The notes: generated by a model from the sequence alone, not told the origin. A stretch of DNA of 64,000 nt from Nannocystis bainbridge (GCF_028368995.1 NZ_JAQNDL010000003.1:2816001-2880000); one strand, 5' to 3'; counted from the stretch's first letter, positions 1 through 5,015 are shown. Numbers and translations: made by a program.

Positions 1-377
1 CGGGGGATCGGTGCACGCAATCCGAGGTTGAAGCCGAGCCGCCCGGGCGCCGAGTCATCGACGCCGACGTTCGACACCCGCACGCTCGGGTTCTCGATCT
101 GCCGGGCCGCGAATACCTCCGTCGCCGCCACCTCGGCCCGCGCCTCGACCACCGCCAATTCAGGGTTGTTGGCCAGCGCCAGCGCGTAGGCCTGCTCGAG
201 CGTCAACGCGTCGCCGGCCGCGAGCGTCGCCGCCGTCGTGCCGGGCAAGCTCCCGCGCGGCGGACCGACCTGCATCTCGCGCCAGGTCGCGATCGCCCGC
301 TCGGGCGAGACCGCCGGCGCGCTCGCGCAGCCGACTGCCGCCATTGCCGCGACCAGCGCCCAGCGCCCGCGAATCAT
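1..377 (-). CDS. TolC-family outer membrane efflux lipoprotein (N-terminal part; runs off window)
   Basis: Not in the ORF track. Manual translation from ATG 377 gives MIRGRWALVAAMAAVGCASAPAVSPERA...LTLEQAYALALANNPELAVVEARAEVA. It has a lipobox and the typical TolC LTL.QA...AL.NNP start, and overlaps the HlyD stop (ATGA). Confidence 0.8.
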   Translation of the reverse strand, partial: MIRGRWALVAAMAAVGCASAPAVSPERAIATWREMQVGPPRGSLPGTTAATLAAGDALTLEQAYALALANNPELAVVEARAEVAATEVFAARQIENPSVRVSNVGVDDSAPGRLGFNLGLRAPIP

Positions 378-1570
378 GGCACCTCCGGCGCCGCGGCGCG
401 GCTCGGCAAGCTCGCCTCGACCAGCGGCGCCGCCAACACCTGCTCGGTCACCGGCTCCGGCGCGACCGGCTCCGCCGCGCACGGCGACGGCTGGCCCAGA
501 AAGCTGACCGTGAACGCCTGCCCCGGCAGCAGCGGCGCCGCCTCGTCGAGCGCGACCGTGACCTCGCGACCCCACTCCGGCACCCCCGGGTTCCGGCGGC
601 AGCGGGCCGGCAGCTCCCCGATCTGCGGCCCCAGCCCCGTCACGTGGGCGCCGACCGCCGGCCCGCCGGTCCCCCGCGCGCGCACCAGCGCCGCCTCGCC
701 CACGCGCACCCGCCCGGCCTGCGCCTCGCGCAGGCACACCACCACCTCGTCGTCCTCGCCCGGCCCGCGGCCCATGATCGTCAGCACCGGCGCGTCCGGG
801 CCCGCGACCTCGCCGGCGCGCACCACGATCTCCGTCACCCGGCCGTCGGCCGGCGCGCGCAGCACCGTCTGCTCGCGCCGCACTGCCAACAATTGCTCGC
901 GCCCCGCCAGCACCGCCAGTTCGGCGCGGACCGGACGCAGCGCCAATTCCGTCGCGTCGGTCGGCAGCGCCGCGCGCCGGGCCCGGGCCACCGCCGCCTG
1001 GCGCACCAACTCGGGCACCAGCGAATCGGCCGCCTCGACCTCCTGTCGCAGCGCCGCGCGCTTGACCCCGAGCGCGTCGAGGTCGCGGCGATCGGCCATC
1101 CGCTCCTTCACCAGCCCGGCCAGCGCATCGAACTGGACGCTGACCGCCCGCAGCTCGGCCGCGCGGACCTCGCGATTGCCACGAGCTGTCCGCACGGCCA
1201 GCTCGGCCGCCGCCACCGAATCCTCGATCTCGCGCGCCTTGTCGTCCTGCTGCAGCGCCGACTCGCTGCGGACCGCCCCGAGCGACGCCTCCAGCCGCGC
1301 GCGCTCGGCCGCCAGGATCGCCTGCTCCGCCGCGAGCTCCGCCGTGTCGAGCACCGCCACCACCTGCCCCGCGCGGACCGGCTCGCCTGGCTTCACCTCG
1401 ACCGTGCGCACCCGGCCGGGCGACGTCGCCTGCACCGCGTATTCGACCCCGAGCGCGAACCCGACGGCCTGGCCCTCCGCGCGCACGTCGAGCCACAGCC
1501 CGCCGGCGCCGGCCATCGTCCCGGCCCAGACCACCCACGGGAGGATGCGAGTCCTGATATACCCAGACAT
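374..1570 (-). CDS. HlyD-family periplasmic adaptor / membrane fusion protein
   Basis: From ATG 1570 (MSGYIRTRILPW): N-terminal TM, lipoyl half-motifs GRVRTVEVKPGEPVRAGQ and LRAPADGRVTEIVVRAGEV flanking a long coiled coil. Confidence 0.85.
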   Translation of the reverse strand: MSGYIRTRILPWVVWAGTMAGAGGLWLDVRAEGQAVGFALGVEYAVQATSPGRVRTVEVKPGEPVRAGQVVAVLDTAELAAEQAILAAERARLEASLGAVRSESALQQDDKAREIEDSVAAAELAVRTARGNREVRAAELRAVSVQFDALAGLVKERMADRRDLDALGVKRAALRQEVEAADSLVPELVRQAAVARARRAALPTDATELALRPVRAELAVLAGREQLLAVRREQTVLRAPADGRVTEIVVRAGEVAGPDAPVLTIMGRGPGEDDEVVVCLREAQAGRVRVGEAALVRARGTGGPAVGAHVTGLGPQIGELPARCRRNPGVPEWGREVTVALDEAAPLLPGQAFTVSFLGQPSPCAAEPVAPEPVTEQVLAAPLVEASLPSRAAAPEVP

Positions 1571-1572
1571 GG

Positions 1573-2256: not shown

Positions 2257-3047
2257 CGCCAGCCTCCTGCGAATCGGTAGGTCCGCGCGTCGGAGGCCCC
2301 GTAGAACGCCTTGATCGAGGTCCCGTACTTCGAGAACGAGCGCCGCGTCAGGTCGAGCCGCTCGACGATGTTGTGCAGCCACAGCGGCACCTGCGTCGTG
2401 AACTTGAGCTCGAGCACCGTCAGCGACTCGGGCGACCGCTGCGTCGCCCCGTCGTCGAGCGCCCGCCAGTTGTGGGCCGGCGCCGTGAACGTCCACTTGT
2501 CCATCACCTGCGCACGGATGCGCGTATCCATCGTCACCCGCACGTAGTCGTCGACGCGGCTGAAGTACGGCTCGCGGTCGTAGCGGACCAGCGTGAACGG
2601 CCGCAGGTGCAGCGTCCGCTGCAGCGCCAGGAACCGCTCGACCGCCGCGAGGTCTTTGCTGCCCACCTCTGCGGGGATCGGCGCCGCCGGGTCGGCCAGC
2701 AGCGCCGCCCAGGCCGCGCGCGACACCCGGCCGCGCGTCTTGGTGATGACATCGTTGATGCGCCGCTTGACCTCGAGGAACACCGGGCTCCCGGGCGCCT
2801 CGGCGTAGCCGCGCACCCGCACCTTGATCCGGTCGACCTGCTCGTGCTCGTTGGCCCAATAGAGGCCCATGAGCGGCGAATCGAGGTACAGGCTCTCGAT
2901 CGTGTAGCGCCCGCCGGGGCTGCGGGCCGCGTACGGGTCGATGTCACAGAACGGCCGGATCGCCGCGCGCAGCCGCGCCGCGGTCGCGCCGTCGATCAAG
3001 TACTTATATTCGCGCCTCTCGATCACGTTTGCCGTCACCACAGACAT
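2253..3047 (-). CDS. VTC (polyphosphate polymerase-like, CYTH fold) domain protein
   Basis: ERREYKYL, YTIESLYLDS, KVRVRGY, FLEVKRR, RVTMD, VLELKF and FSKY motifs. Confidence 0.92.
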   Translation of the reverse strand: MSVVTANVIERREYKYLIDGATAARLRAAIRPFCDIDPYAARSPGGRYTIESLYLDSPLMGLYWANEHEQVDRIKVRVRGYAEAPGSPVFLEVKRRINDVITKTRGRVSRAAWAALLADPAAPIPAEVGSKDLAAVERFLALQRTLHLRPFTLVRYDREPYFSRVDDYVRVTMDTRIRAQVMDKWTFTAPAHNWRALDDGATQRSPESLTVLELKFTTQVPLWLHNIVERLDLTRRSFSKYGTSIKAFYGASDARTYRFAGGWR

Positions 3048-3629
3048 GACTGTCACCCTTCGTCGTCGCCGCGCCCCACGGCGCGCCATTGTGATGAATC
3101 GCCGCAGCGATCGTTCGGGCCGGGGACGCCCGCCAATTCACATCCGTCCATCCTAGGACCGCTTGTGCACCGAGACCGTGCGCTCGAGCATCGGCGGTCC
3201 CGATCGGGCCGCACACCGGGCCGGCGACGCGCTTCACGGCGTCGGCCGCGGCCCAGTCCCTCGCACGCGCAGCGCCCGCCCCGTCCCCCCCTCGCGGACC
3301 CCGACGCCTCCGTGGCCGAAATCTCGGCCCTGGCGCGCTCCCGCGCCCCGGCCCGCGCGATCACGCCAACCGCCAAACCTCCGCAGGGACGGCTCCAGCG
3401 GCTCCCCCGCCGGCTTCCGCCCGCCGCCGCCCCGTGACGCGGACCACCCCGCCCGCGCCCGCCCCCCCGTGACCGGCTCGACACCCACACGCCGGCCTCG
3501 TGGCGCCCTGCGGACAATGGTTCCACGCTTGCCTCGTCGTTCGCGCGGCCTCGACTCCGGTCCGGCGATCCGTAGATCCGTGACGCGCCGCCCTTGAATC
3601 CCTGGCCGCGCTGTTCACATTCCTCGAGC

Positions 3630-5015
3630 ATGCGCTGCTATTGGACGAGCCTCCTCGCGATCCTCACAGTTACCGGTTGTCCCGCCAATGACCCCCCCGC
3701 CGCGGCGACCGACGGCAACGGGGACACTGACGCCACCATGGAGACGTCGAGCACCGGTTCGGTCGGTACCACGACCTCGGCCGAGATGCCGACCACCGGC
3801 ACCGAGACATCCGGCGAGCTCACGACCACCGGCGACCCGTCGACCAGCACGGGCGGCGACGAGACCACCGGCGCCGTCGAGCCGCCGCCGGCGTGGCAGC
3901 CGAAGGGCTGCCCGGAGATCTACGCCCAGGACATTTTGCCCACCTTCGAGATCGAGCTCGACCCGGCGGAGCTGGCGGGGCTCGTGGCCGAGTGGGAGGC
4001 CGGCGACGACAACAATACGCCCGACCACCCGGTCGAGCAATTCAAGTACCAGGGCGAGGTCATCACCTATGCCTCGATCCGCCTGCGCGGCAACGCCACC
4101 TGGTGGCCCGGCCAGGGCAAGATGCAGTTCGAGATCGGCTTCAACACCTACGACAAGAAGGGCCGCTTCCGCGGCCTCAAGAAGATCCTGTTCGACGCCG
4201 CCGAGTATAACCGCGCCTTTTTGCGCGACCGCATGGCGATGCACATCTTCCGCGACCTCGGCCTGCCCGCGCCCTGCGCCAACAACGCCCGCCTGCTGCT
4301 CAACGGCGAGTACTACGGCCTCTTCACCAGCATCGAGAAGGTCGACAGCGAGTTCATCGAGCGCGTGTTCGAGTTCGACGAGGGCAACCTCTACAAGCGC
4401 GGCGCCGGCTGGGAGAAGAAGACCAACGAGAAGGACCCCGACGACAGCGACATCGAGGCGCTCACCGACGCCGAGACCCTCGCCGACCTGGAGCCGATCC
4501 TCAACATCGATCAGGCCGTGCTCGAGTGGGCCGCCGAGGCCGTCATGCCCGACAACGACGGCGCCTGGGCCGGCGGCCTCAACCTCTACGTCTACAACGA
4601 CCCCAAGACCGGCTTCAACATCATCCCCTGGGACAAGGACGCCACCTTCGATCGCGTCGAGCCTGACGTCGATCCATATACCTATATCAAGCCCAACGAC
4701 AAGGGCCGCCCGCTCTACGACATCGTCACGGGCGACCCGGCCTGGTTCGCCGCCTACGTCGAAGCGCTCGCCCACGTGCGCGAGGTCGCCTACGACGTGA
4801 ACGTGCTGCACGCGCGCATGGACGCCTGGACGGCCCAGATCGAGGAGGCCGCGCTGACCGACTTCAACAAGCCGTTCACCAACAAGCAGTATTACTTCGG
4901 GGTCGAGACGATGCGTCAGTTCATCACCGACCGCGCGGACTACCTCGACGATTGGCTGGCCTGCTGGCAAAACGGCGGCGAGAAGCAGGGCACCGGCCCG
5001 TGCGTCGAGCCGTGA
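3630..5015 (+). CDS. CotH kinase family lipoprotein with Thr-rich linker
   Basis: Lipobox VTGC; IRLRGNAT, FLRDRMA, LLNGEYYGLFTSIEKVD, GNLYK, NLYVY and IIPWDKD motifs. Confidence 0.9.
   Translation: MRCYWTSLLAILTVTGCPANDPPAAATDGNGDTDATMETSSTGSVGTTTSAEMPTTGTETSGELTTTGDPSTSTGGDETTGAVEPPPAWQPKGCPEIYAQDILPTFEIELDPAELAGLVAEWEAGDDNNTPDHPVEQFKYQGEVITYASIRLRGNATWWPGQGKMQFEIGFNTYDKKGRFRGLKKILFDAAEYNRAFLRDRMAMHIFRDLGLPAPCANNARLLLNGEYYGLFTSIEKVDSEFIERVFEFDEGNLYKRGAGWEKKTNEKDPDDSDIEALTDAETLADLEPILNIDQAVLEWAAEAVMPDNDGAWAGGLNLYVYNDPKTGFNIIPWDKDATFDRVEPDVDPYTYIKPNDKGRPLYDIVTGDPAWFAAYVEALAHVREVAYDVNVLHARMDAWTAQIEEAALTDFNKPFTNKQYYFGVETMRQFITDRADYLDDWLACWQNGGEKQGTGPCVEP

Follow-up and report, generated by a model that had tools for sequence, protein, structure and literature searches.

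How might a polymer made in the cytoplasm leave a cell bounded by two membranes when the genes that would carry it out include no pump? This question is raised by the first 5,015 nucleotides of a 64,000-nucleotide stretch of the Nannocystis bainbridge genome (the window; G000:C2:2816001-2880000, from a genome of 11.05 Mb with 71-72% G+C), where genes for a VTC-domain protein, a DUF4956 inner-membrane protein, a HlyD-type periplasmic adaptor and a TolC-type outer-membrane factor follow one another on one strand, and a gene for a CotH-family kinase lipoprotein is transcribed divergently. An initial annotation of this DNA proposed that the cassette makes polyphosphate, uses DUF4956 as a channel and delivers the polymer, or another phosphoryl donor, by way of HlyD and TolC to the kinase at the cell surface. 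Here, we describe a comparative and structural analysis of this cassette. The four genes on the minus strand almost certainly constitute one functional unit that operates without a conventional pump. To the full reading, in which the operon is a polymerase-driven duct exporting polyphosphate across the envelope, we give about an even chance.

The cassette consists of the following features, numbered from the first base of the window:

1..377, minus strand: 5' part of the gene for a TolC-family outer-membrane factor (Pfam OEP); the whole gene encodes 445 aa and runs outside the window to G000:C2:2815040

374..1570, minus strand: HlyD-type membrane-fusion (periplasmic adaptor) protein, 398 aa (Pfam HlyD_3, HlyD_D23, Biotin_lipoyl)

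1573..2256, minus strand: DUF4956 inner-membrane protein, 227 aa (Pfam PF16316; AlphaFold2 model)

2253..3089, minus strand: stand-alone VTC-domain protein, a candidate polyphosphate polymerase (Pfam PF09359; start at ATG 3089 or ATG 3047)

3090..3629, no strand: divergent intergenic region between the VTC and cotH genes, 540 bp, the presumed promoter region (read from the sequence)

3630..5015, plus strand: CotH-family kinase lipoprotein, 461 aa (Pfam PF08757; start at ATG 3630)

The four minus-strand genes are tightly coupled. The VTC stop and DUF4956 start share the bases ATGA at 2253-2256 (as read from the DNA), the HlyD stop and TolC start share ATGA at 374-377, and the DUF4956 and HlyD genes meet as a TAG stop, CC and an ATG, leaving a 2-bp gap at 1571-1572. 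Re-reading of these junctions bore out the coupling first described for this locus, as it did the divergent orientation of the CotH gene, which lies on the plus strand at 3630-5015 and encodes the lipobox VTGC; lipoboxes are also present in the translations of TolC (AVGC) and of a lamin-tail domain (LTD) protein encoded just beyond it (LVGC). The Pfam scan, which placed DUF4956 inside the open reading frame (ORF) at 1573-2859, HlyD inside that at 374-2140, CotH at 3594-5015 and an OEP fragment at the window start, likewise agreed with the earlier statement that no ABC or RND pump lies between the four genes. A scan of L001:11500-20000, which belongs to the window's own locus and runs through window base 4000, returned no sigma-70-like promoter site and one terminator-like site on the other strand, a result that is uninformative for a myxobacterium of 72% G+C. 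The genome encodes one VTC, one DUF4956 and three CotH proteins. Since an ordinary PPK1 is also encoded elsewhere in the genome, the VTC enzyme would be an extra, dedicated one.

The linkage of VTC, DUF4956, HlyD and TolC genes, which the initial annotation had left to a survey of gene neighbourhoods, is conserved. Twenty DUF4956 relatives were aligned and one genome per species was scanned with two DUF4956 peptide motifs; of the 142 stretches that matched, 126 encode a DUF4956 relative, and the survey rests on the 80 best of these, each taken with at most 10 kb of flank on either side. Neighbours were called by profiles grown from the window's own proteins, and the resulting counts describe this DUF4956 subfamily rather than the whole DUF4956 family. 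An HlyD gene directly follows DUF4956 in all 80 loci, a count that is not circular because the loci were picked on DUF4956 alone. TolC follows HlyD in 60 of the 80 loci, or in 60 of the 68 that are informative (in 12 of the 20 TolC-negative loci the DNA stops no more than 506 nt from the HlyD ORF). VTC is immediately upstream of DUF4956 in 60 loci, and 12 more have it at another position in the locus. CotH or LTD genes occur in 50 of the 80. Among the aligned relatives, Pfam recognized HlyD_3 in 32 of 32 adaptors and OEP in 29 of 30 outer-membrane factors. In most relatives the HlyD start lies no more than about 16 nt from the DUF4956 stop, and an overlap of 4-31 nt joins the end of HlyD to the start of TolC; start codons close to the preceding stop were chosen for these measurements.

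These loci are not confined to close kin of the window, whose DUF4956 protein shares 96% identity with its counterparts in Nannocystis exedens DSM 71 and Nannocystis sp. RBIL2. Judging by record titles, myxobacterial loci come from Nannocystis, Polyangium, Sorangium, Chondromyces, Labilithrix and Haliangiales, and others from Akkermansiaceae, Bryobacteraceae, Solibacteraceae, Acidobacteria and Fibrobacteria, some of the bins being oddly labelled. With 80 of 80 related loci showing it, the gene arrangement recurs far beyond chance. A second, independent sample comprised 401 genomes of the phylum, 198 of which gave a DUF4956 match and 132 of which hold a strong match (E <=1e-20) to this adaptor family. 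Cross-matching used 150 of the 228 DUF4956 matches, the window's own match falling outside those listed. Among the matches listed, the HlyD family lies 121-843 nt downstream of at least 55 of 123 weaker-scoring DUF4956 genes and beside none of the 27 canonical ones (Pfam E <=1.2e-35).

Tripartite efflux is defined by a cognate ABC, RND or MFS pump that is encoded with the adaptor. No such pump is encoded in the operon or after it, and these families are absent (Pfam) from all 93 flanking ORFs of 18 representative related loci, ORFs that were picked by length and, in GC-rich loci, by G+C content at third codon positions (GC3), such that small or atypical genes may escape. Nor did any of 11 ORFs examined over the 16 kb that precede the window encode one. 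The question posed earlier, of whether a pump gene follows tolC beyond the window's edge, was answered by two genes of other kinds:

50 bases after tolC, outside the window, minus strand: 450-aa lipoprotein with two LTD domains (Pfam LTD, E 3.3e-25)

L001:12320-13627, 9 bases after the LTD gene, minus strand: 435-aa polytopic membrane protein, the last operon gene in Nannocystis (no Pfam or NCBIfam match)

The 435-aa membrane protein was considered as a hidden pump and rejected. It is confined to Nannocystis, being present in 4 of 81 loci (the window's own and three others), and is therefore no general component of the system; it belongs to an uncharacterised family, its Atlas neighbours being unnamed clusters from Bacillota and Thermodesulfobacteriota (TM 0.75-0.83). 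NCBIfam assigned no family to this protein, to the LTD protein or to CotH.

The adaptor is itself set apart from those of known pumps. It matches Pfam HlyD_3 (E 3.8e-12), HlyD_D23 (8.5e-9) and Biotin_lipoyl (1.4e-5), and its translation carries an N-terminal anchor, a hydrophobic stretch of residues 9-27 that follows R6 and R8. In NCBIfam it reached no named adaptor subfamily (type I HlyD, EmrA, RND, DevB or CzcB), the best scores being 51.2, 48.7, 47.6 and 45.6 bits against cut-offs of 208.65, 129, 94.9 and 390.8. A conserved motif of its own, P321-x-R323...W333-G-R335, lies near the C-terminus of the adaptor core. By sequence, the adaptor belongs to a separate lineage that scores under every NCBIfam subfamily cut-off.

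If the unit is a polymerase-driven exporter, the cytoplasmic Vtc4-like enzyme would make polyphosphate from ATP and feed the growing chain into a DUF4956 oligomer in the inner membrane, in which the protein's five helices would be joined, on the cytoplasmic side, by an ACT-like domain and by invariant arginines arranged in a ring. The membrane-anchored HlyD-type adaptor and the TolC-type lipoprotein would, in turn, carry the path over the periplasm and the outer membrane. The driving force would be polymerisation itself, as in the yeast VTC complex, in place of an ABC, RND or MFS pump; synthase-dependent exopolysaccharide secretion is likewise driven by polymerisation. Upon reaching the cell surface, the polymer would meet the CotH kinase and LTD lipoproteins, which would act on it or with it. 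We infer a physical complex, a channel role for DUF4956, a polyphosphate cargo and the roles of CotH and the LTD proteins. Three premises on which the initial annotation had drawn find support in portions of the literature: that the yeast VTC complex couples synthesis to translocation (10.1101/2023.01.27.525886), that bacterial VTC, DUF4956 and CotH genes cluster (10.1101/768473) and that CotH is a kinase (PMC7821199).

An argument that the product leaves the cell comes from loci of other architectures. Twenty canonical DUF4956 loci were examined, and Pfam was run on 140 ORFs from 10 of them. VTC adjoins DUF4956 in 19 of the 20, and in the other (L099) lies about 4 kb away. An adaptor or duct of the family described here is adjacent to canonical DUF4956 in none of the 20, and neither HlyD nor OEP families occur among the 140 ORFs (Pfam). 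Directly after canonical DUF4956, in 7 of the 10 loci and in the same phylum, is DUF2490, which the available text of one survey classes as a putative porin family (TC 1.B.81; PMC4827864); a DUF4956-DUF2490 pair also adjoins in B. thetaiotaomicron (BT3498-99), according to part of another source (PMC10434189). Twelve further loci were without an apparent adaptor link. In 11 of these, DUF4956 is beside a large CotH-domain protein, with VTC present in 10; the remaining one turned out to be HlyD-linked. The third architecture (L107-L117) places a CotH-domain protein of about 870-950 aa directly beside DUF4956, and profiles of our own detected neither adaptor, duct nor DUF2490 there. The common core is therefore VTC, DUF4956 and CotH, and in double-membraned bacteria it is completed at the same position by either of two outer-membrane devices that are unrelated to each other. 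That two unrelated outer-membrane partners occupy one position is the strongest comparative argument that the product must leave the cell.

Several observations weigh against polymerase-driven export of polyphosphate, and they are given here with the components that they concern. The linkage has gaps: TolC is absent despite at least 3 kb of further DNA from 8 of the 68 informative loci (L055, L056, L074, L076, L079, L081, L083 and L085), and VTC was not found in 8 of the 80 loci within the flanks of up to 10 kb per side. The export machine that was originally proposed stood in part. Its conserved, pumpless unit was upheld (80 of 80 loci, 0 of 93 flanking ORFs), whereas its duct shows no adaptation to a polyanion and the membrane part of its putative channel matches no solved structure.

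The VTC domain of the enzyme is full length (PF09359, positions 1-235 of 235; E 4.1e-37; score 128.4 bits, cut-off 23) and is the only domain in the 278-aa ORF, which has neither an SPX domain nor a fused C-terminal membrane domain; no NCBIfam family was assigned. The lone sequence matched no solved structure, and a profile was needed: built from 25 orthologues, it matched the catalytic domain of yeast Vtc4 (3g3q) at E 1.3e-18 and, far more weakly, those of the inactive Vtc2 (6.4e-10) and Vtc3 (8.1e-6). Residues K200, R264, R266, K281, Y359, R361, E426, S457 and K458 of Vtc4 correspond here to K16, R78, R80, K95, Y157, R159, E214, S240 and K241, as mapped by hand from the HMMER alignment and numbered on window:2253-3050, minus strand. 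Eight of the nine are invariant in the 25 orthologues and S240 is kept in at least 90%. We consider the VTC protein a candidate polyphosphate polymerase with an intact site. Triphosphate tunnel enzymes also include plain triphosphatases, and because the fold is common to both, kept tunnel residues are not proof of a polymerase. In the accessible part of the Vtc4 study, these nine residues are ligands of triphosphate and Mn2+ and are required in vivo for polyphosphate, and K458 is the sole one of the nine that is missing from Vtc2 and Vtc3 (10.1101/2023.01.27.525886). A role solely as a triphosphatase, which the initial annotation had seen as fatal to its proposal, fits poorly with polymerase residues that are intact down to the K458 equivalent.

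An alternative that follows from the shared fold is that the VTC protein is not a polymerase, or that the cargo is not polyphosphate, and that the trio exports some other compound or ion while VTC regulates or energises the process, for instance as a triphosphatase. The ACT-like, ligand-sensing fold of DUF4956 would suit such regulation, and the literature searched held no biochemical or genetic data on any bacterial VTC or DUF4956 protein, nor an assay of a bacterial VTC protein. This alternative must account for the retention of all nine Vtc4 synthesis residues, including the one that the inactive Vtc2 and Vtc3 lack, and for a profile that favours Vtc4 over both of them by many orders of magnitude in E value, and we regard it as unlikely.

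The DUF4956 protein is a divergent member of its family, since the match to PF16316 (36.1 bits against a cut-off of 30.6, E 7e-9 to 1.6e-8) covers only model positions 19-111 of 169; it has no NCBIfam family. Its AlphaFold2 model (pLDDT 81.5) contains five predicted membrane helices (17-41, 49-69, 73-89, 95-112 and 116-135) followed by a ferredoxin-like (ACT-like) domain at 140-226. An invariant loop, R87-F-R89-T-x-x-R93-D-P-R96-D97, is present in the relatives. Our reading of the model by the positive-inside rule puts the N-terminus out and the ACT-like domain in, which would place the invariant arginine loop at the cytoplasmic face, where it could receive a polyanion. The periplasmic loops span about 3 residues, so that contact with the adaptor must lie within the membrane, an arrangement that fits an adaptor with its own anchor. 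DUF4956 is probably the inner-membrane partner of this adaptor.

The membrane part of DUF4956 gave no convincing solved-fold match by Foldseek and VIA-align, and hence no solved channel to which it might be likened. Its C-terminal domain resembles ACT, NikR and MgtC C-terminal domains (Z 8.8-10.1, MgtC 8.8), and the likeness to MgtC counts on the same side, because MgtC is a regulator rather than a transporter. These features give rise to a second alternative, in which DUF4956 is an MgtC-like regulator or anchor and no conduit, HlyD and TolC serve a pump whose gene lies elsewhere, and co-regulation alone accounts for the gene order. In keeping with it, the Joint Genome Institute (JGI) label 'YhiD' is attached to some DUF4956 relatives, and with about 14 TolC paralogues and many adaptors in the genome, partners could in principle be shared. 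Co-regulation would, however, have to explain adjacency in 80 of 80 loci from several phyla with overlapping or near-overlapping starts, flanks in which none of 93 ORFs is a pump, and an adaptor lineage that is distinct and bears its own motif; moreover, the DUF4956 protein has no Pfam match to MgtC even at E <=10. We give this alternative only a slight chance.

The outer-membrane duct is of ordinary design. TolC contains two OEP repeats (PF02321; E 9.5e-33 and 9.6e-34), and its AlphaFold2 model (pLDDT 88.9) has the canonical fold of two strand pairs and two long helical hairpins, with Foldseek matches to TolC, CusC and OprM (E 3e-16 to 1e-11, TM about 0.7). Its net charge of +3 over 381 aa is inside the range of 13 genome paralogues (-5 to +6), and the periplasmic hairpin tips keep acidic residues, D403 being D or E in 25 of 30 relatives and position 203 acidic in 25 of 30. 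Thus no electropositive adaptation of TolC to a polyanion was found by net charge or hairpin-tip residues. The charge test is crude and was made on a monomer model, and it is mild evidence against transit of polyphosphate in naked form; a Mg or Ca complex may pass.

Adaptor length is bimodal among 72 complete ORFs, 41 being of 622-759 aa and 31 of 315-442 aa. The additional 300 or so C-terminal residues of the long form match the Pfam Phytase-like family in 17 of 21 scanned (best E 2.9e-9), and a profile of this domain matched no solved structure at E <=1:

L012:11817-12773, L036:11824-12702 and 19 other loci: C-terminal adaptor domains of about 300 aa, 17 of these 21 matching Phytase-like (Pfam PF13449)

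The window adaptor is of the short form, as in its three closest Nannocystis relatives, and that it is without the phytase-like domain of most relatives is a further point on the debit side. The sole phytase-like gene of the genome sits 2.8 Mb away. In Akkermansiaceae a related DUF3616 protein is encoded by a separate gene just upstream of VTC (L085:7530-8684). As a separate matter, the adaptor gene seems frame-shifted or split in three loci (L011:10688-12769, L026:10666-12329 and L069:10688-12257): the aligned L011 adaptor turns to nonsense beyond about residue 290, and two HlyD matches in different frames are present in each of L026 and L069. These may be assembly errors or decayed copies.

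Duct and adaptor together suggest a third alternative, namely that polyphosphate is moved only as far as the periplasm or outer membrane and is bound or processed there, in relatives by the phytase-like domain of the adaptor, while TolC releases a breakdown product or cations. The fusion of that domain to 17 of the 21 long-form adaptors scanned is what such processing would predict, and the conserved acidic TolC tips disfavour a naked polyanion. Phosphatase genes stand in several neighbourhoods. Phosphate-metabolism genes recur beside the cassette, with PhoX in L081 and Ppx-GppA in L057; the neighbourhood of L059 holds an H+-pyrophosphatase and an Exo_endo_phos protein, and metallophosphatase genes are near the cassette in L069, L073 and L075. 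Together with the phytase-like domain, these genes also speak for the polymerase-driven exporter. Processing short of the surface is at odds with the window copy, which is without the phytase-like domain while the rest of the operon is kept, and with the putative porin of canonical loci, which also points to outer-membrane transit. CotH and the LTD protein, both lipoproteins, may finish on either face of the outer membrane. We judge this alternative improbable.

In the polymerase-driven reading the exported chain would end at CotH. The lipoprotein has a PF08757 domain (E 1.1e-33) and a low-complexity Thr/Gly/Ser linker, and matches B. cereus CotH (5jd9) at E 9e-11, its PWD Asp aligning with the PWD of 5jd9. 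Residues K164, E236, D310 and N318 do not vary among the 24 CotH sequences taken from these loci, and the consensus contains IPWDxD; in the HMMER alignment to 5jd9, D310 is one column off the catalytic Asp, and its assignment is our own reading. The available portion of one study identifies CotH as a kinase, with D228 and D251 catalytic in B. subtilis (PMC7821199). With catalytic residues kept and a lipoprotein signal present, CotH appears to be an active kinase that is located beyond the cytoplasm. That polyphosphate serves as its phosphoryl donor is speculation, and at best unlikely.

Further genes lie near the cassette in related loci and in the window's own flank. In Polyangium and Sorangium, PPDK_N (pyruvate phosphate dikinase ATP-binding) proteins of about 700-730 aa are encoded upstream of CotH or DUF4956 genes and may be a further phosphotransfer component:

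L036:5998-8178 and L041:7762-9888: PPDK_N proteins (Pfam E 5e-23 and 1e-19)

Ten kb before the window, L001:5493-6089 on the minus strand (G000:C2:2805493-2806089) encodes a 198-aa NpmA-family protein (PF24675, E 2e-51). This family comprises 16S rRNA (adenine1408-N1) methyltransferases of the aminoglycoside-resistance type, found here in a soil myxobacterium. Also before the window, on the plus strand at L001:7490-10662, a gene for a DUF1592/DUF1588/DUF1595/DUF1587/DUF1585 protein is followed by one for a DUF1552 (HXXSHH) protein with a Tat signal, a pair typical of planctomycete-type exported proteins.

The cassette represents a testable candidate for a bacterial counterpart of the eukaryotic VTC polymerase-translocase and for a TolC-dependent exporter driven by polymerisation rather than by a pump, and it offers a possible explanation for phosphoryl supply to secreted CotH kinases. 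We know of no dedicated bacterial route of polyphosphate export. In the elaborate extracellular matrices that Nannocystis and other myxobacteria produce, a polyanion exported by the cell could contribute to structure or bind metals, or it could play a part in predation. Extracellular release or accumulation of polyphosphate occurs in some bacteria, according to parts of two reports (PMC10653871, PMC12772234). The boldest form of the proposal is a long shot: trans-envelope secretion of a new class, with a polyphosphate polymerase in place of the pump and an exported polymer that powers extracellular CotH kinases and binds LTD lipoproteins. If that form is true, polyphosphate would be an exported energy currency for bacterial surface chemistry, CotH kinases having no ATP outside the cell. 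All parts of the cassette are small, and their expression and assay are feasible.

Among known systems, the eukaryotic VTC complex (Vtc4/Vtc3/Vtc1; PDB 3g3q, 7ytj and 8i6v) resembles the cassette in its homologous catalytic tunnel domain with nine polymerase residues and in the proposed logic, by which synthesis would be coupled to passage through a basic-lined membrane channel. It differs in that the bacterial enzyme, of about 265 aa, stands alone, without SPX or fused membrane domains, the membrane partner here is DUF4956, a family other than the VTC membrane domain, and the proposed target is the exterior via HlyD and TolC instead of the vacuole lumen. EmrAB-TolC, MacAB-TolC and HlyBD-TolC have in common with it an anchored lipoyl/beta-barrel adaptor, a canonical TolC-fold duct and the adaptor-duct gene order, but the cassette is without an MFS, ABC or RND engine, its adaptor falls outside the NCBIfam subfamilies, and most relatives carry a phytase-like domain. 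In alginate (Alg8/Alg44/AlgK/AlgE) and cellulose (BcsA/B/C) secretion, an inner-membrane polymerase drives its polyanionic product across the periplasm by way of an adaptor-like protein, and out through a pore in the outer membrane, with no separate pump; the parts are not homologous to those described here, where the polymer would be inorganic and a TolC-type duct stands in place of a beta-barrel porin.

The closest relatives of the core are found in clusters that have appeared in print, the VTC, DUF4956 and CotH trio being widespread and noted in portions of two papers (10.1101/768473; 10.1101/2024.04.20.589940). Genes of the same three families, VTC under the name 'polyphosphate polymerase', cluster next to pel genes in Gram-positive bacteria, where, in the available text of these sources, DUF4956 has four membrane segments and a C-terminal ACT domain, CotH is secreted, and, in one of them, polyphosphate may remain cytoplasmic. 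Those hosts have a single membrane, and the genes, described there as accessory genes of putative function, come without an adaptor or duct. For the version with adaptor and duct, no paper was found in the literature searched, which was largely without subscription journals. The VTC-DUF4956-DUF2490 clusters, such as that of B. thetaiotaomicron (BT3498-99), are nearest in plan, with a VTC/DUF4956 core followed by an outer-membrane component in double-membraned hosts. There, the DUF4956 protein is canonical (Pfam E 1e-41 to 1e-54, compared with about 7e-9 here) and a small putative beta-barrel porin takes the place that HlyD and TolC occupy in Nannocystis.

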